Source: Candidatus Bathyarchaeota archaeon (GTDB lineage Archaea > Thermoproteota > Bathyarchaeia > Bathyarchaeales > Bathycorpusculaceae). From it: a stretch of DNA of 64,000 nt. A program made the position numbers and the translations under genes. The number at the start of each line of letters is the position of its first letter. Position 1 is the first letter of the stretch. The stretch is taken from the NCBI GenBank assembly GCA_963767735.1, contig CAVYES010000004.1:288001-352000 (forward strand), given 5' to 3'. The notes under the pieces were generated by a model. That model was not told where the DNA came from and searched no databases. It worked only from the letters and a program-made list of their open reading frames with translations. Positions 725-9,464 of this stretch are shown here, piece after piece.

Positions 725-1909
725 TTATTTTTTGACTACTTCGAACGTTTTCGGTTTCCTAATAAGGGCAATTATCGGTGTAGTACATTCCAGCAAGCCT
801 ATAACAACTGAAGATATCAGAGCTAAGAAATGGAAACCTATCCTCTTTTTCAAATGAAGATATCTACCATTAAAAAAAGCCCCAATCTGATAAGAAAACA
901 ACCACATAAGACTCGTTAAGGAAAAAAAGACTCTTAGACTAAAAGGCAAGTATTGCGGAACAAAAAATGCAGCAATAGAAATTATTCCCGAAATTAAGCC
1001 TGAAGTCCAAATTAATGCTCTGGCGCTTTGCCTAATTTTCTCTTTATAACAAAAATATTTAAAGTTCTGAATTAAACCGTAAAACCATCTTCTTCGCTGT
1101 CTAAACAGGTCTTTGAGAGTTAATGGACTTTTTTCCTCAACTACTCCGCCGTGCCACCCAAAAGCTTCCGATCCATACTTTATTTTTGCTTTAATGGCAA
1201 AGAGTGTGTCTTCAGCAAAAGTTTTTCCGTTTTCCCAGCTGACTTCTTCCTCAATGTCACTTCTCACCAGAAGATTTGACCCATGGATATAAGCTGGATT
1301 TCCAGTAGACATCATATTCAAGCATTCAAAGCAGCAGAATGGTCTAAGTGTATCCATAAGATTTGTTATTTTAATTGCTTCCTTTTCACGCACCGGATAG
1401 ACGATTAAGCTTTCGCTTATCGGTTTAGGATTACCCTCCAAATACGAAAGTATGCTGCAGAGAGTTTGTTTTGTGATTAAACTTTCATCATCAAGATGAT
1501 AAACATAAACGTCCTTGCTGCTTATTTTTTCTTTTCTGCGAAGTTCAACCGCATATTGGAGTGCTCTGCCTTTATGAACAGCGTTGCAAGAATAATCTTG
1601 GGGAACAATTATGGTTCTGCATCCTTCAAATTTTTCTTGAACGTCGGTAACAGCCCATAGAGTGTATTTTGAGTAGCCGATTGTTTTACAAACAGCGTTT
1701 ATCTGGTTAATGGTATCTTGAACAATTCCAATGTTGCCTTTGGTGGTTACTTGAAAAAGTATTTCTGGTGTTCCAAACTTTTCTTTTACTGGTTTTGCAA
1801 TCAGTTTTGAGTGATGGGTAAAAAGGTAAAAGTAAAATCTTATGAACAAAAAGGAAGACAGAACCCATATAATCCAGAGGTAATCCCAAAACACAAGCTT
1901 TAACTCCAT
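725..1909 (-). CDS. Glycosyltransferase family 2 (egghead/beta-1,4-mannosyltransferase-like)
   Basis: KGRALQY, HLDDES, AEDT and QRRRW motifs; N- and C-terminal TM helices. Confidence 0.88.
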   Translation of the reverse strand: MELKLVFWDYLWIIWVLSSFLFIRFYFYLFTHHSKLIAKPVKEKFGTPEILFQVTTKGNIGIVQDTINQINAVCKTIGYSKYTLWAVTDVQEKFEGCRTIIVPQDYSCNAVHKGRALQYAVELRRKEKISSKDVYVYHLDDESLITKQTLCSILSYLEGNPKPISESLIVYPVREKEAIKITNLMDTLRPFCCFECLNMMSTGNPAYIHGSNLLVRSDIEEEVSWENGKTFAEDTLFAIKAKIKYGSEAFGWHGGVVEEKSPLTLKDLFRQRRRWFYGLIQNFKYFCYKEKIRQSARALIWTSGLISGIISIAAFFVPQYLPFSLRVFFSLTSLMWLFSYQIGAFFNGRYLHLKKRIGFHFLALISSVVIGLLECTTPIIALIRKPKTFEVVKK

Positions 1910-2951: not shown

Positions 2952-3213
2952 CGGAAATCTTGGATTTCAGCGGAATTGCTTTCGCTTTTCCCATTCTTTT
3001 GGCAATCATGATTTCGCTTGCTTCAATGCAATCTATGGGGAGTTACTTGAATGTTATCGAATAATCCAGAATTTAAAAGTAAAAATCGAAGCGTCCAGGG
3101 AGGCTCTGAATTGCATTAAAAGTGACAACTGTCAACCCTCATAACGCCTCAGCCCATAATTTTATTAACACCTACGATATTGGAAAGTTTTTTATGCTCT
3201 TTAGGTCTATATA

Positions 3214-4890
3214 TTGAGGGGAGTAAATACGATAGCAAACTCTATCGACCTTACTCAATCAAAGCCCAATAAGCAGATTAATCTATTAACATCTTCTTCA
3301 AAAATCCCTTCTCCCCGAAAAAGAGGTAATGGTGATAACGGCAAGGATTTGCTTGAAGAGTTAGGAATAAGCAGTCAACAGTTCAAAATTTTATTTAATA
3401 ATCTTCCTCAAGGCGTGGGTCTGTATAAAATGGTTTGTGACGAAAAAGGCGCGCCGATTGACTTTATTCTTCTTGTGAGTAACAAAGTGTATGATGATAT
3501 TCATTCTTATAAGAGACAACGAATGGAAAAAAAAGCAACGCAGTTTAATTCCAACATAAAAAATGGCCAGATAGACTGGATAGGCGTTTATGGCAGGGTA
3601 GCCACCACGGGTGTTCCAGAGTATTTCGAAGCTTACGGTAAGTCCCAGGATAAATGGTATCAAGTTTACGTTTACAGTCCCAAGAAGACCTATTTTGTTT
3701 CAATATTTATGGATATAACTGAGGAAAAAAATAAAAATGCGAGAGAGCTTGAGAAACAAGAGAGGTGGGAGCAGCAACTTGTTATGTCGGAAAAAAAGTA
3801 CCGCAGGCTCTATGAGACATCTCAAGACGGAATTATGGCACGGGACCTGCAGGGACGAATGGTTGATTGCAACATGGCCTACGCGAGAATGCTTGGTTAC
3901 TCAAAAAAAGAACTAAGACAGATGACTGCCCATGAGTTAATGCCTGAGAGGTGGCATGAACAAAGAGAAAAAATCGTTAATAAAGTGCTACAAACTGGGC
4001 GCTCAATTGTTTTCGAAAGAGAGTACAAGCGTAATGATGGCTCGGTTTTTCCAGCTTCAGTTAGAACTTGGCGGGTGACTGACGGAAAAGGAAAAGTAAT
4101 AGGAATATGGTCCATTGTCCGAGACATAACTGAGCAGAAGGATTTTCAAAAAAATCTGTTAGATCACGCGGGAATTTTAGAAGGAATAATTGAGGACAGA
4201 ACAAAGCAGCTTAAAGATTCTGAGCGTTTAGCAACTATTGGTCAAACTGCAGGCATGGTCGGGCATGACCTTCGCAATCCACTGCAATCGATAACAGGCG
4301 AATTATATCTTGCCAGATGCGAAGTTGAATCGCTTCCTCAAAGCGGACTTAAAAGCAGTTTACAAGAGAGCATACAGATAATAGAAGAGCAATCAGAATA
4401 TATGGACAAGATCGTTTCCGATTTGCAGGCGTTCGTAAAACCAATCAGGATAGAAAAACAACCAATCAGCCTAATCGAGCTTGTTAACGCCGTCATATCA
4501 TCCGTTGCCATTCCAGAAAACATTAACGTTAACGTATGTATGAGGGCAGATTTTCCGCAGGTGAAAGCTGACCCCCAACTCCTGAGGAGGGTTCTAATTA
4601 ACCTGGTAACAAACGCGATGCAAGCCATGCCCGATGGAGGCAAACTGACTGTAAGCGCGGAAGTTAACAGCCAAGGTCGCGTAGTTTTAACGGTTGAAGA
4701 CACGGGCGTAGGCATATCTGAAAAAATTAAACCCCAAATCTTTACACCATTATTCACTACTAAACCAAGAGGACAAGGCTTCGGCTTAGCCGTCTGCAAA
4801 CGAGTAATAGAAGCCCATGGCGGCTCCATCAACTTTGAGAGCCAAGAGGGCAAAGGTACAAAATTCACAATTCAATTTCCAGCAAGTTAA
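3214..4890 (+). CDS. Cytoplasmic PAS-domain sensor histidine kinase
   Basis: Two PAS domains, H-box GHDLRNPL, N-box NLVTNA, G1 DTGVG, F-box, G2 GQGFGL. Confidence 0.95.
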   Translation: MRGVNTIANSIDLTQSKPNKQINLLTSSSKIPSPRKRGNGDNGKDLLEELGISSQQFKILFNNLPQGVGLYKMVCDEKGAPIDFILLVSNKVYDDIHSYKRQRMEKKATQFNSNIKNGQIDWIGVYGRVATTGVPEYFEAYGKSQDKWYQVYVYSPKKTYFVSIFMDITEEKNKNARELEKQERWEQQLVMSEKKYRRLYETSQDGIMARDLQGRMVDCNMAYARMLGYSKKELRQMTAHELMPERWHEQREKIVNKVLQTGRSIVFEREYKRNDGSVFPASVRTWRVTDGKGKVIGIWSIVRDITEQKDFQKNLLDHAGILEGIIEDRTKQLKDSERLATIGQTAGMVGHDLRNPLQSITGELYLARCEVESLPQSGLKSSLQESIQIIEEQSEYMDKIVSDLQAFVKPIRIEKQPISLIELVNAVISSVAIPENINVNVCMRADFPQVKADPQLLRRVLINLVTNAMQAMPDGGKLTVSAEVNSQGRVVLTVEDTGVGISEKIKPQIFTPLFTTKPRGQGFGLAVCKRVIEAHGGSINFESQEGKGTKFTIQFPAS

Positions 4891-5688: not shown

Positions 5689-6396
5689 TTAACCCATGGC
5701 CGCGCCACATTGTTTACAAAACGAGGCTTGGGCCTTGTTCTTTGTTCCGCAACAGTTGCAAGTCAACTCTGAAGAAGGCTCAGCGTTAACCGTTTCGTCC
5801 TCAAGTTTTTTACCGCAGCTCTGGCAGTAAACGGCGTCAGGTTCGTTGCTTGAGCCGCAGAACTTGCAGACAAGCGCTATGAGACTTTCGTCGCAAAGAG
5901 CATTCCATTTGCCGGCTATCCAAAGCTTATCCTTCAAGCCTTTGATCGCAGAAATAGTTTCCATCAGTTGTTGGAATTGCTCTTCATCGGGAGCAAATTT
6001 CGATTCACAGTCCTTACTCAATATCACAAACTTCGGCGTTTTTCCCCAAACCAATTTGACCTCTTCAATTTCCTCGTTAGTGTAGAAACAGCTTTTTTTG
6101 CTTAGCTTCAAAATGTCGTCTAAAGACCAGTCTTTTATTTTTTCGTCAATCGATTCGCTTTTCTTTGTCTCTTCCGTGTTCGATGCCATGGGCGGAGGCA
6201 CTCCAAACACCGAAGGCATTAAGGAAAGCGACTCTGACGTCTCAGATTCAAAACGGTCTGCCCGCCCCAAGCAAACAATCGCAACACGCCTGTCAGTAAA
6301 ATAAACATCGTACCTAGTGCTCACGTCAACCGGCAAAACGACGTCTTTAACAATTCCCCACAACCTCTCAGAACCTGACATGCATTTAATCCCCAT
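5689..6396 (-). CDS. Double zinc-ribbon domain protein with PH-like N-terminus
   Basis: C-terminal CKFCG..CQSCG and CNCCG..CKQCG; YFTDRR motif. Confidence 0.85.
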   Translation of the reverse strand: MGIKCMSGSERLWGIVKDVVLPVDVSTRYDVYFTDRRVAIVCLGRADRFESETSESLSLMPSVFGVPPPMASNTEETKKSESIDEKIKDWSLDDILKLSKKSCFYTNEEIEEVKLVWGKTPKFVILSKDCESKFAPDEEQFQQLMETISAIKGLKDKLWIAGKWNALCDESLIALVCKFCGSSNEPDAVYCQSCGKKLEDETVNAEPSSELTCNCCGTKNKAQASFCKQCGAAMG

Positions 6397-6871
6397 CAGA
6401 TGGTTCTGCTTTTGCTAATTCATAAGGTTTCTTATGGTTTAAACCCACGCTTCTGGTTTAAGATAAACTGGTAGATGGGGTGGAAGTTGAACCCTCAACT
6501 ATATAGATATCACCTCAAAGCCCTTTCTTCTATTTTGATTTCCAACCACACCTCAGGGTTGATTGATTTTGGTTTTGCCTAAAACCTTAATTAAATTTCT
6601 TATTGGTCAATTTTGACCAATTTTGGGGGGACCACTTTTTTTTGGAAAAGACTTAGTTTTGGTTGTTTTTGGTCAGTGGCCTTTTTTTCGCGGCTTATTT
6701 GGTCTGTCGATCCTTGAATTTTTGCAGATTTATTATGCAGTTTTTTCATGTTTGATTTGAAGCTAAATCTTCAAAAGGCTCTAAATTTCAAGTAAGAAGA
6801 AGCTCAATTTAATGTTAGAAACGTTCAGGCGCAGTGGAGAAGGGTTAGTGTCATTTGAAGTTGTGAAGAAA

Positions 6872-6942
6872 TCTGACGTGATTTATACGCTTTTTTGCGC
6901 TAATTATACGTGACTTTGCGCATATTTGACGCTTCTGCGCGG
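6872..6942. repeat. Degenerate ~10-11 bp phased tandem repeat (about 7 units, core TWYRCGY)
   Basis: tctgacgtgat ttatacgcttt tttgcgctaat tatacgtgac tttgcgcatat ttgacgctt ctgcgcgg. Confidence 0.5.
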
Positions 6943-7298
6943 TTAGCCAAAAGCCCGAGTGATTTTGACCTTAAGGGAAAAAACATTCTTAGGGCAGTTG
7001 CTTTCCACATTTTTTCAGAACGTCTCAGCTCTTATTCTTGGTTCCGCAATTAGCGAAGATTTCCGTAAGTTGAGTCTCTTCAAGCCTAAATTCAAAGCTG
7101 TTTGAAATTCTGAGTTTGACTTCTTGGATTGCCCAGCAAGCGCGTTTATACAAGCGTGTACACAAGAACTTGCGCAATGGGCAATTGCATAATCGCTGCA
7201 ACAGGCCAAATAGACCATGCAAGAATACTATCAGACGACCCACATTTCGACTGCATAAAAGAAACAAAACGAGTCTGGATTTAACAATTAACAAAAAA

Positions 7299-7323
7299 TG
7301 GTGGACGAGCCGGGATTTAAACC
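7299..7323 (-). other. tRNA 3'-end remnant (Ala-like), possible att site
   Basis: Minus strand GGTTTAAATCCCGGCTCGTCCACCA followed by a T-run; no matching 5' half. Confidence 0.6.
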
Positions 7324-7405
7324 ACGCTTTGAAATTTCGATTGACTTTTCAACTCTCGCGATGCATAATGCTTAAATTGTTTTTGTTCGTGCTATGTGTG
7401 GCTGA

Positions 7406-7510
7406 GGGCTGGTAGATCAGTCTGGCATGATCGCCACGTTGGCATCGTGGAGGTCGCGGGAAGCATGGCAATTTCGGCTGTGCTCGCGAATTCAAATCCC
7501 GCCCAGTCCA
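7406..7510 (+). tRNA. tRNA-Ala(GGC) with 30-nt non-canonical intron at position 53/54 (7461-7490)
   Basis: Acceptor GGGCTGG/CCAGTCC with G3:U70; anticodon arm CCACG-TTGGCAT-CGTGG. The T-arm GCGGG-TTCAAAT-CCCGC is restored by removing 7461-7490. BHB-like CGCG/CGCG helix with GG|A and AA|T bulges. Confidence 0.93.
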
Positions 7511-8271
7511 TTCTGGAGCGGAAGGGGAGATCCCTTCCCAGCCCATCCTCCTAACTTTGCGCTGTGCTTTATTGAAGAGAAACCATGTTTTTTGCATGCA
7601 TTATGGAACTCTGCTTTTCTCAAATAGACGTGAAAAACGTCATAACTGTATTTTTTCGAATGTATATCCATAAGAGAAGAAATCCTCATGATGTTTTCCG
7701 CTAACATTGGCGAAGAAGTCGAAATGTACAATTTTTTGGTTCCACCTTCGGCATCTATGATTCCGCAGAGAAACCCAAACAAGAAATCGTCAGAATAAGA
7801 ACTGAAGTCAGCTAGGTGAACGGATTTGGATTTTCTGGTGCCTTGCCACCTGAGATATTTCTCAACAAAATAATAGAATTTCTTGTTTTTGCATCTAACG
7901 TAAACCCGTTTGCCCTCGATGGATCTCCATGTTTTTAATCCGCATTTAGAAAGGAAGAATTCGACACGTTCCACTATCATGTATTCGTTTTCGTTTAGTG
8001 CAAACTTGATGCTGTAAGAATAGTCTTGTTTCCTTAGATGGCGGCTGCCGTCACCGGCGTAACAGCCGATAAGCCAACCGAGCTCCAAATCAACCAATTT
8101 TTCTATATTCATTGTTTTTTCCCTTGGGTTCTTTGCTCTTACTTTGGCGACATGATATTGAACGGCAGACTTGGAGCGTCCCGTCTGGGCACTTATCTCA
8201 TTTAGACTTGCCCCTTTCTCTACAAGCGTTTTAATGTGGTCAAGTTCGGTGGGGGAGAAACGTTTCATCAA
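7492..8271 (-). CDS. Free-standing double-motif LAGLIDADG endonuclease-family protein with N-terminal HTH
   Basis: WLIGCYAGDGS and FLCGIIDAEGG motifs; HTH GASLNEISAQTGRSKSAVQYHV; no intein splice motifs. Confidence 0.85.
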   Translation of the reverse strand: MMKRFSPTELDHIKTLVEKGASLNEISAQTGRSKSAVQYHVAKVRAKNPREKTMNIEKLVDLELGWLIGCYAGDGSRHLRKQDYSYSIKFALNENEYMIVERVEFFLSKCGLKTWRSIEGKRVYVRCKNKKFYYFVEKYLRWQGTRKSKSVHLADFSSYSDDFLFGFLCGIIDAEGGTKKLYISTSSPMLAENIMRISSLMDIHSKKYSYDVFHVYLRKAEFHNACKKHGFSSIKHSAKLGGWAGKGSPLPLQNGLGGI

Positions 8272-8411
8272 AGGTCAATGTTAGTATATTTGGGGTTCAT
8301 TTAAAAAAACTATGACAAATAACGCATAACGCTAACTAAGCCTTGAAAAATGTCGGCGTAGCTTTTTATAATGCATTCGCAAATAGAGAAGCCAAGCAAG
8401 GTGCAAATAGC

Positions 8412-9464
8412 ATGCCTAAAGTAAAAGTTGCATTGATCGGTGTTGGAAACTGCGCTTCAGCCTTTGTCCAAGGCTTGCAATATTATGGGAAACTTGTGAA
8501 AGCGGAAGATTACGTTGGATTGCGTAATCCAGTTTTGGCGAATTTAAGCCCGAAAGACATATCGGTAGTTGCGGCTTTTGACGTGGATGAGCGCAAGGTT
8601 GGCAAAGACCTCTCAGAAGCGATTTTTGCTCTTCCCAATAATGCGCCAAAAGTCTCCGATGTACATTCAACAGGTGTAAAGGTAAGCAAGGGTCCACTGT
8701 TGGATGGTTTGGGCGAATCAAGTAAAGTTATTGTGCAAGTCAGCAAGTCGCCTGATGCGAATGTTGCCAAGGCTCTCAAAGATGTAGGCGTTGAGGTAAT
8801 GGTTAATTTGTTGCCCAGCGGAGCCTCAAAAGCTTCGCAGTGGTATGCTGAACAAGCCTTAGCGGCAGGCTGCGCTTTTGTCAATGCCACGCCGACCTTT
8901 ATTGCCAGCGATCCTGTGTGGGCTAAACGGTTTGCTGATGCAAAGCTCCCCCTCGTCGGCGATGACTTGGTTGATCAGGTTGGGTCAACTTCTTTACATA
9001 AAACGTTGCTTAAGCTGCTTTCAGACAGTGGAGTAAGAATAGATGAGACTTACCAGCTTGACGTTGGCGGAGGCACCGAATCTGTCGACACAATGGATCG
9101 CACTCGTGATGCAAAGCGTGCCATAAAAACGGAGTCAGTAGCTGCTTCAATACCTTACAAGGCTGAGATAGTGGCTGGCTCCACGGATTACGTGGATTTT
9201 CTGCAGAACAAGCGTGACAGTTACTTCTGGATAAGCGGCGTCTACTTCTGCAATGCACCCATGAAGATAGACCTTAAATTCCAAACCGTAGACGCGCCAA
9301 ACGCAGGCTCCGTACTCTTCGATGTAGTACGTGCCTTGAAACTTGCATTAAACAAAAAGCTTACTGGAGCGGTGGAGCCGGTTTGCGCCTACGCCTTTAA
9401 ACGACCGCCACAGATGGTGCCGCTTGAGGTTGCAGAAAAAGAATTCGCAAAGTTCATGGCTTAA
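8412..9464 (+). CDS. ino1: myo-inositol-1-phosphate synthase
   Basis: KVALIGVGNCASAFVQG, AAFDVD, FVNATP, GDD, DAPNAG motifs; ATG 8412 is the likely start. Confidence 0.9.
   Translation: MPKVKVALIGVGNCASAFVQGLQYYGKLVKAEDYVGLRNPVLANLSPKDISVVAAFDVDERKVGKDLSEAIFALPNNAPKVSDVHSTGVKVSKGPLLDGLGESSKVIVQVSKSPDANVAKALKDVGVEVMVNLLPSGASKASQWYAEQALAAGCAFVNATPTFIASDPVWAKRFADAKLPLVGDDLVDQVGSTSLHKTLLKLLSDSGVRIDETYQLDVGGGTESVDTMDRTRDAKRAIKTESVAASIPYKAEIVAGSTDYVDFLQNKRDSYFWISGVYFCNAPMKIDLKFQTVDAPNAGSVLFDVVRALKLALNKKLTGAVEPVCAYAFKRPPQMVPLEVAEKEFAKFMA

Follow-up and report, generated by a model that had tools for sequence, protein, structure and literature searches.

The 64,000-nucleotide stretch of Candidatus Bathyarchaeota DNA analysed here (contig CAVYES010000004.1, positions 288,001 to 352,000; hereafter the window, with its genome called G000) contains a free-standing gene for a helix-turn-helix (HTH) LAGLIDADG nuclease, which adjoins a tRNA-Ala(GGC) gene with a nuclease-less 30-nt intron between tRNA positions 53 and 54. 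Together with related loci, it reveals a resident intronless tRNA-Ala(GGC) gene that has been split near positions 41/42 by ~1.0-1.07 kb of DNA carrying an inverted, complete tRNA-Ala gene. This arrangement is probably best explained by a selfish cassette of ~1 kb, consisting of the HTH-LAGLIDADG nuclease gene, the intron-bearing tRNA-Ala gene with its own promoter and a trailer hairpin, which overwrites the intronless resident tRNA-Ala(GGC) gene by homing. A preliminary description of this DNA had suggested that the nuclease cuts intronless tRNA-Ala alleles, so that intron and nuclease spread together by collaborative homing. That interpretation is partly supported by the data presented here.

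A BLAST match beside the nuclease gene in one metagenome-assembled genome (MAG) prompted a search for leftover pieces of the resident tRNA gene. The homolog search yielded 48 homologs with 55-85% identity at E<=1e-3 among 191 candidates, and 31 ortholog loci were available for comparison, six on contigs of named Bathyarchaeia MAGs and 25 on metagenome contigs. The old 5' relic, covering tRNA-Ala positions 1 to 33-44 and mostly ending at 41 or 42, is present in 21 of these 31 loci, where it lies 60-100 nt upstream of the nuclease gene on the same strand. Its acceptor strand reads GGGCGGG, as in intronless alleles, while the cassette tRNA has GGGCCGG or GGGCTGG. The old 3' relic is found in 12 loci on the nuclease strand, 54-359 nt beyond the promoter of the cassette tRNA, and comprises the variable region, GCGGG, TTCAAAT, CCCGC, CCCGTCC and A. 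Since GCGGG is directly joined to TTCAAAT, this relic is intronless; it is also retained in the window and in the genomes G036 and G030. Both relics occur together in 10 of the 31 loci, and part of a tRNA promoter precedes the old 5' relic in at least three (L041, L053 and L065). The layout is an old 5' half, the nuclease gene, then on the other strand the trailer hairpin and the intron-bearing tRNA gene with its promoter, and finally an old 3' half. The parts present in the window are given in Table 1.

Empty sites survive in other members of the genus. Window positions 7294-7323 align to the 3' end of the intact intronless tRNA gene in the empty-site congeners L031, L037, L023 and L016, and the relic at 7299-7323 represents an allele type that is common in the genus. 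In the window, the filled segment replaced ~175 bp, corresponding to old tRNA positions ~1-51 and ~120 nt of the upstream region. G009 (L031) and G013 (L037) contain an intact intronless tRNA-Ala gene in the orientation of the old gene, located between homologs of a zinc-ribbon gene (window positions 5689-6396) and of an inositol-1-phosphate synthase gene (8412-9464). In ten other intronless loci of the genus, the intact tRNA-Ala gene adjoins the synthase homolog. The same chromosomal site is filled in the window, G036, G254, L038 and L066 and empty in 12 loci, two of them with both flanking genes.

The preliminary description had proposed that a cut across GCGGG/TTCAAAT lets intron and nuclease spread together. 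Copying of the two into the resident allele at this place is not borne out: the resident gene has been broken apart, and its relics flank an intron-bearing gene of opposite orientation. Co-conversion as in collaborative homing is likewise not what is observed, since the intron-bearing gene is a separate inverted copy. Literal collaborative homing, with a cut at GCGGG/TTCAAAT and a repair tract that copies the intron and the adjacent nuclease while the resident tRNA gene stays in place, is consistent with the strict association of nuclease and intron, with exons nearly identical to those of intronless alleles and with an inferred recognition site that must cross 53/54. However, the intron-bearing gene is equipped with a separate promoter, differs in its acceptor pair and does not encode CCA. 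The model is contradicted at loci with both relics, where the break in the resident gene lies near 41/42 and the 3' relic contains no intron. This literal form is therefore considered quite improbable.

It is also conceivable that the old halves form a functional tRNA-Ala gene, interrupted near 41/42 by an intron of ~1 kb that encodes the nuclease, comparable to the LAGLIDADG-bearing BHB introns of archaeal rRNA genes, and that the second tRNA-Ala gene is nested antisense within this intron. The nuclease gene is indeed on the same strand as the old halves, which are well conserved and jointly cover the whole tRNA in 10 loci. Nevertheless, the old 5' pieces of L040, L047, L048, L054 and L055 lack the anticodon, the acceptor of L063 is mutated, and the 5' piece is absent in 10 of the 31 loci and in the window. 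Co-folding of both junctions in nine loci gave no bulge-helix-bulge (BHB) structure, and a complete second tRNA-Ala gene would be superfluous, which leaves a split but functional gene with very little likelihood.

The presence of a tRNA-Ala(GGC) gene with a 30-nt intron at 53/54, as given in the preliminary description, was confirmed by an Rfam match, by direct reading and by an alignment of 32 rows. Rfam RF00005 matches window positions 7406-7510 on the plus strand with 39.9 bits (gathering threshold 29) and with 37 nt in place of the 7-nt T-loop, and ARAGORN reported no tRNA anywhere in the window. The 5' exon contains the acceptor strand GGGCTGG and the anticodon GGC and ends with the T-stem strand GCGGG, while the 3' exon continues with TTCAAAT, CCCGC, CCAGTCC and A, without an encoded CCA. 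All four tRNA stems are 100% paired in the alignment of 32 distinct copies, and G3.U70 is found in 32 of 32. The region upstream of the gene (7340-7405) is predicted to serve as promoter of the cassette tRNA.

The insert can be read directly from the sequence as a BHB element with a 4-bp helix (CGCG/CGCG), 3-nt bulges (GG/A and AA/T) and an 8-bp inner helix. In this reading, C48-G51 pair with intron bases 25-28 and the splice sites are placed in the bulges. The bases of the intron junction and of this helix are invariant in the 32 aligned rows, and six of the eight pairs of the inner helix vary on both sides, with a covariation score that was matched by none of 500 shuffles. Because the outer helix is weak, the intron is assigned to the relaxed BHB form, and the 30-nt insert appears to fit the layout of an archaeal BHB intron of this form. 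Two EndA-domain genes above the Pfam cut-off are found in G000, which we take to be consistent with heteromeric enzymes accepting relaxed BHB motifs. The intron is absent from the tRNA-Ala(GGC) genes of 27 loci examined in the window's genus.

One allele combines features of both gene types. The tRNA gene of L011 in G070 (locus positions 1451-1555, minus strand) has a cassette-type promoter and cassette-type exons (GGGCTGG...CCAGTCC, no CCA), but neither the intron nor the trailer hairpin, and its homology to the window stops 3 nt past the tRNA. This allele represents either a precise intron loss or an ancestor of the cassette tRNA.

For the nuclease, Pfam, a match to a solved structure and alignments of homologs agree with the preliminary description of an HTH and two-motif LAGLIDADG gene with acidic catalytic positions, which converges on the tRNA gene and has its stop codon in the T-loop. 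The open reading frame at 7492-8271 on the minus strand comprises 259 codons for amino acids, and the ATG at 8268 is the likely start codon. The stop codon TGA at 7492-7494 corresponds, on the other strand, to TCA in the T-loop of the convergent tRNA gene. Pfam LAGLIDADG_3 matches two stretches of the protein (E 1e-6, 29.3 bits, cut-off 22.5), the match to HTH_38 is below the cut-off (19.3 bits vs 27), and residues 2-43 match the HTH repeat of PDB entry 2lvs with E 1.3e-7. Besides 2lvs, the only solved structures matched by sequence were PI-PkoII (E 0.0038) and I-AniI and 2dch (both E 0.11).

The LAGLIDADG motifs are LGWLIGCYAGDGS at residues 64-77 and FLFGFLCGIIDAEGG at residues 163-178, with catalytic positions D74 (codon 8050-8052) and E175 (codon 7747-7749). 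D74 is invariant among 20 orthologs, in which position 175 is D or E, and in 44 sequences with 24-31% identity to the window protein the first acid again does not vary, while at least 90% have D as the second. The protein is thereby predicted to be a single-chain, two-motif LAGLIDADG homing endonuclease with an acidic residue ending each motif. Its gene is single-copy in G000, and the ratio of nonsynonymous to synonymous substitution rates (dN/dS) is 0.10-0.30 in 14 of 16 ortholog pairs, the other two being saturated. Most aligned homologs end near residue 238 and only a minority extend as in the window, so that the last ~21 residues are regarded as read-through across the trailer into the tRNA gene; the conserved protein ends near 7558, and bases 7495-7557 encode the read-through tail.

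At L041 (2865-2938), L053 (2850-2939) and other loci, the old tRNA promoter and the first ~41 nt of the old gene are located directly upstream of the nuclease gene. As this promoter sits on the nuclease strand, the nuclease may be transcribed from a captured tRNA promoter.

The preliminary description had called for a comparison of nuclease and intron occurrence across related genomes, and the two are strictly associated in one direction. In 27 of the 31 ortholog loci, the nuclease gene abuts, convergently, a complete tRNA-Ala(GGC) gene whose insert has an identical position and identical ends (AAGC...CTCGCGAA). A contig end truncates three further loci, which retain the 3' part of the intron, and one locus ends before the tRNA gene, i.e. 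none of the 30 evaluable loci has the nuclease without the 53/54 intron. The reverse association fails in the six genomes G036, G030, G432, G254, G411 and G430, which have the intron but lack the nuclease. Among 401 genomes drawn from the class, five contain the intron junction (G000, G432, G254, G411 and G430) and 92 the intronless junction; an ortholog of the nuclease was found in G000 only.

G036 and G030 have kept the intron-bearing gene, while their nuclease genes are reduced to 3' remnants encoding residues 233-259 and 215-259, respectively. At the same chromosomal site, G036 lacks the sequence that corresponds to window positions 7577-8350 and contains the nuclease. Broken nuclease copies are found in L038/L044 (in-frame stop at W66), L040 and L066, and the gene is intact in the other loci. 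The L038 copy (3001-3777) is the closest relative (83% identity); a single in-frame stop replaces the W of the first LAGLIDADG motif in an otherwise intact gene, so that either the gene was inactivated very recently or the stop is a sequencing error. In the MAG with L039, tRNA positions 1-59 including the first intron bases are matched a second time on another contig (G447:C130:18771-18829); this could be another copy of the intron-bearing gene or a duplicate introduced by binning. Contigs from four DNA sequencing runs contained short pieces only, with no joint spanning the nuclease or the intron.

The strict linkage of the nuclease to the intron-bearing gene could also be expected of a maturase-like helper that is needed to splice the 53/54 intron. 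This is extremely improbable, because the intron-bearing tRNA is the only detected match of tRNA-Ala(GGC) type in the six genomes that lack the protein, the nuclease gene is broken in three loci, and EndA genes are present in G000.

Nuclease clades coincide with variants of the cassette tRNA (CTGG+TTCGAAT, CTGG+TTCAAAT and CCGG+TTCAAAT), indicating that the two parts are inherited as a unit. The between-locus p-distance of the relics is 0.13 (136 pairs), compared to 0.56-0.58 at four-fold sites of the adjacent nuclease genes (45 pairs), and this low divergence of the relics would fit repeated entry of the cassette into fresh, conserved tRNA genes. In a host tree based on one gene, the neighbouring synthase, five filled and four empty genomes fall within one well-supported clade, but neither the best tree nor any of 200 bootstrap trees groups the filled rows as a clade of their own. 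Intron-bearing and intronless genomes furthermore coexist in the genera g1, g43 and g47. A scan of viral contigs detected no ortholog of the nuclease, only distant matches with 25-48% identity.

The presence of an HTH domain, and the conservation of the arrangement across proteins that are 55-83% identical, would be compatible with a vertically inherited, domesticated DNA-binding neighbour, such as a WhiA-like regulator of the tRNA locus, in which case the linkage would be synteny only. Such a role is very improbable for a gene that is present or absent at one chromosomal site within the genus, that has been broken or deleted in several copies and that occurs in just one of the 401 class genomes. 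The conserved catalytic D/E positions and the relics of a disrupted gene also argue against it.

The cassette might instead have been moved by general recombination between conserved tRNA sequences or by an integrase acting in trans; the nuclease would then merely travel along as a passenger or act as a post-segregational addiction factor. Archaeal elements classically integrate at tRNA genes (PMC4390854, PMC3293823). On the other hand, the nuclease is the only protein encoded by the ~1-kb cassette, it evolves under purifying selection and has retained its catalytic acids, and distant relatives of the protein family sit at other tRNA genes, and another mover is thus considered unlikely. An integrative element of the integrase type was rejected, as the cassette contains no such gene.

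In the homing model that we favour, the nuclease would cut the intronless tRNA-Ala(GGC) DNA, and repair from a filled locus would copy the cassette in, with the conserved tRNA halves serving as homology arms. Because insertion would destroy a needed tRNA gene, the cassette would have to bring a replacement, and this replacement would escape the nuclease because its intron interrupts the recognition site. After fixation the nuclease gene would decay, leaving behind an intron-bearing tRNA gene without a visible cause.

The intronless alleles of the genus are the same as the cassette tRNA at positions 8 to 55 and again after the intron, and in L050 an intact nuclease gene lies beside relics that are identical to the cassette tRNA for positions 8-44 and 46-66. 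If the nuclease is active and targets the tRNA-Ala gene, three sequences of one genome would all have to escape cleavage, namely the old positions 1 to ~41-44, the old positions ~42-45 to 73, which are unbroken across 53/54, and the cassette tRNA, which is unbroken from 1 to 53. For the relics and the cassette tRNA to stay uncut, the recognition site would need to reach across the ~41/42-44/45 junction as well as 53/54. The implied site of at least ~13-16 bp would be well within the length of LAGLIDADG sites, and the HTH domain would be available for extra contacts. In this model the intron would destroy the cut site and protect the cassette's own tRNA.

Several observations weigh against homing of such a cassette or against parts of the proposed mechanism. 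In several loci the anticodon stem of the relic (CAGCG/CGCTG) differs from that of the cassette tRNA (CCACG/CGTGG) by two base pairs, and this difference, rather than the intron, could protect the cassette tRNA. The window itself lacks the old 5' relic, its old 3' relic begins at ~52 and not at 42, and the junction positions range from 33 to 44 across loci. Conservation of the relics could also result from selection, e.g. as promoter or leader of the nuclease gene. When the filled rows of the synthase tree were forced into a single clade, the approximately unbiased (AU) test gave p = 0.069, i.e. a single gain within the genus is not rejected. In g43 and g47 no shared site was found, and intron-bearing and intronless congeners are alike only in the tRNA itself. 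Finally, the trailer hairpin has no role in the proposed model.

Linkage to tRNA genes extends beyond the orthologs, as had been asked in the preliminary description. A profile built from the orthologs matched 734 representatives at E<=1e-3 and 256 at E<=1e-10, and nine distant relatives were matched in the 401-genome draw. Eight of these nine adjoin a tRNA gene, and six of the eight tRNA genes carry an insert. In four cases (L069, L070, L071 and L073 of G400, G421, G049 and G419, respectively; 54-92 bits to the profile), the nuclease gene is followed by a tRNA-Asp(GUC) gene on the same strand with an insert of ~27-31 nt after the anticodon stem; these genes are mislabelled by ARAGORN, and L070 has extra tRNA-Asp pieces on both sides. 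Two relatives (L072 2705-2799 of G326 and L075 1731-1825 of G379) overlap convergently by 19 nt with a tRNA gene that contains a 19-nt insert in an anticodon loop reading CUGAC, and thus share the tail-to-tail geometry of the window. The remaining relatives comprise a broken copy that faces an intronless tRNA-Pro gene, a copy that overlaps an intronless tRNA-Thr gene, and one that is cut by a contig end.

LAGLIDADG endonucleases of the I-DmoI and I-PorI type are encoded in BHB introns of archaeal rRNA genes. The enzyme described here is likewise a predicted single-chain, two-motif LAGLIDADG protein associated with a BHB intron in a stable-RNA gene. However, its open reading frame is not contained in the intron and runs antisense to the intron-bearing gene, an HTH domain is added at its N-terminus, and the intron is only 30 nt long. 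Introns in 16S rRNA genes are known from Thermoproteales (PMC4496867).

Phage collaborative (trans) homing is exemplified (PMC3984707) by the free-standing F-CphI gene beside the psbA intron of cyanophage S-PM2, which lacks an open reading frame, and by mobE of T4 together with the nrdB intron. As in these phages, a free-standing nuclease gene adjoins a gene with a nuclease-less intron, and the intron would interrupt the target, so that the carrier is immune and both travel together. The differences are that a BHB intron of an archaeal tRNA gene takes the place of a group I intron, and that the whole intron-bearing gene is mobile and inverted within the disrupted resident, which destroys the allele rather than converting it. 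The cassette also resembles the intronless homing of T4 Seg and Mob enzymes (PMC3984707), in which a free-standing nuclease gene spreads with its flanking DNA into nuclease-less genomes at a conserved gene. The T4 elements are inserted beside or between genes, whereas here an essential tRNA gene is split and a replacement copy compensates for the loss.

Among archaeal tRNA genes, a mobile-element model was put forward by Sugahara et al. in 2012 for the disruption of tRNA-Thr(GGU) in Caldiarchaeum subterraneum, with a 1.8-kb element and a predicted recombinase (PMC3293823). In both cases a 5' fragment of the tRNA gene remains next to the inserted element and to a tRNA copy that has one more intron, so that the gain of an intron is tied to an insertion. 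Unlike the Caldiarchaeum element as described there, the cassette has a LAGLIDADG nuclease as its sole protein-coding gene, its replacement tRNA is inverted, and both old halves and empty sites can be seen. Randau and Soll hypothesized, as summarized in PMC4390854, that the disruption of tRNA genes persists because it protects against the integration of such elements. The cassette shares with this hypothesis a tRNA intron that would shield against a DNA element targeting the uninterrupted gene. In contrast to a host defence, the shield would here belong to a selfish element and protect the element's own tRNA copy. A full-text literature search, with subscription journals outside its coverage, found no published free-standing LAGLIDADG cassette in archaeal tRNA genes.

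For the origin of non-canonical archaeal tRNA introns and the persistence of disrupted tRNA genes, protection from integrating elements and insertion of mobile elements have been offered as hypotheses (PMC3293823, PMC4390854). The locus described here points to a concrete and testable route by which oddly placed archaeal tRNA introns could spread. Loci of this family combine, within ~1.2 kb, the nuclease gene, the intron-bearing replacement and the remains of the intronless target, and congeners still have empty sites; since the states before and after insertion can be placed side by side, the hypothesis becomes testable at the bench. The nuclease, extended by an HTH module, would have a novel specificity directed at a tRNA gene. 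As six genomes already look as if they contained ordinary intron-bearing tRNA genes, many orphan tRNA introns may share this origin. In a more tentative reading, which is less likely than not, non-canonical BHB tRNA introns, at least in Bathyarchaeia, might largely be self-immunity devices of tRNA-targeting LAGLIDADG cassettes, each of which replaces an intronless tRNA gene by an intron-protected copy and later loses its nuclease to decay. The large HTH-LAGLIDADG family, with its 256 representatives at E<=1e-10, would then consist of elements that are each specialised on one tRNA gene.

The trailer element directly after the tRNA gene is a conserved part of the cassette. A GC-rich hairpin of at least 5 bp is present in 32 of 32 rows. 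It is followed by a 7-mer, CCAGCCC in the window, which in 30 of the 32 rows is exactly complementary, read in reverse, to the 5' acceptor strand of the same tRNA copy. RNAalifold pairs this 7-mer with the acceptor strand. The element is retained in all six nuclease-less intron-bearing genomes and is missing in the intronless G070. Hairpin and 7-mer (7520-7544 and the 31 other copies) resemble a T-arm followed by an acceptor 3' strand, with C70 replacing U70. A decayed old T-arm as the source of the hairpin was rejected, because the hairpin is conserved with compensating changes over the 32 rows and does not resemble the T-loop.

Table 1. Positions of the cassette and its parts in the window
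Feature	Positions	Strand	Description
Old intronless tRNA-Ala(GGC) relic	7299-7323	-	Last T-stem 5'-strand bases through T-loop, T-stem 3' strand, acceptor 3' strand and encoded CCA
Filled segment (cassette)	7324-8355		1032 bp; homology to empty sites stops at 7323 and resumes at ~8356
Promoter/leader region of the cassette tRNA (predicted)	7340-7405	+	TATA-like GCTTAAATTG at 7370-7379; conserved upstream in related loci
tRNA-Ala(GGC) 5' exon	7406-7460	+	tRNA positions 1-53; Rfam and alignment of 32 copies
BHB-type intron at 53/54	7461-7490	+	30 nt; Rfam and alignment of 32 copies
tRNA-Ala 3' exon	7491-7510	+	T-loop, T-stem 3' strand, acceptor 3' strand and discriminator A; Rfam and alignment
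Trailer hairpin	7520-7538	+	GGAAGGG-GAGAT-CCCTTCC, then 7-mer CCAGCCC at 7538-7544
HTH and double-motif LAGLIDADG nuclease gene	7492-8268	-	258 aa from ATG
Nuclease 5' region inside the cassette	8269-8355	-	T/A-rich TATA-like stretch ~35 nt upstream of ATG

Two further observations concern the surroundings of the cassette. A tRNA-Val(GAC) gene is located just upstream of the old tRNA-Ala 5' half in L041 (2699-2773) and L053 (2725-2802), which makes it a possible synteny marker for empty sites. At 6487-6973, between the zinc-ribbon gene and the old tRNA relic, the window contains a dispersed repeat of which ~10 copies with 71-77% identity are found elsewhere in G000; in the empty sites of congeners this region is only ~85 nt long.

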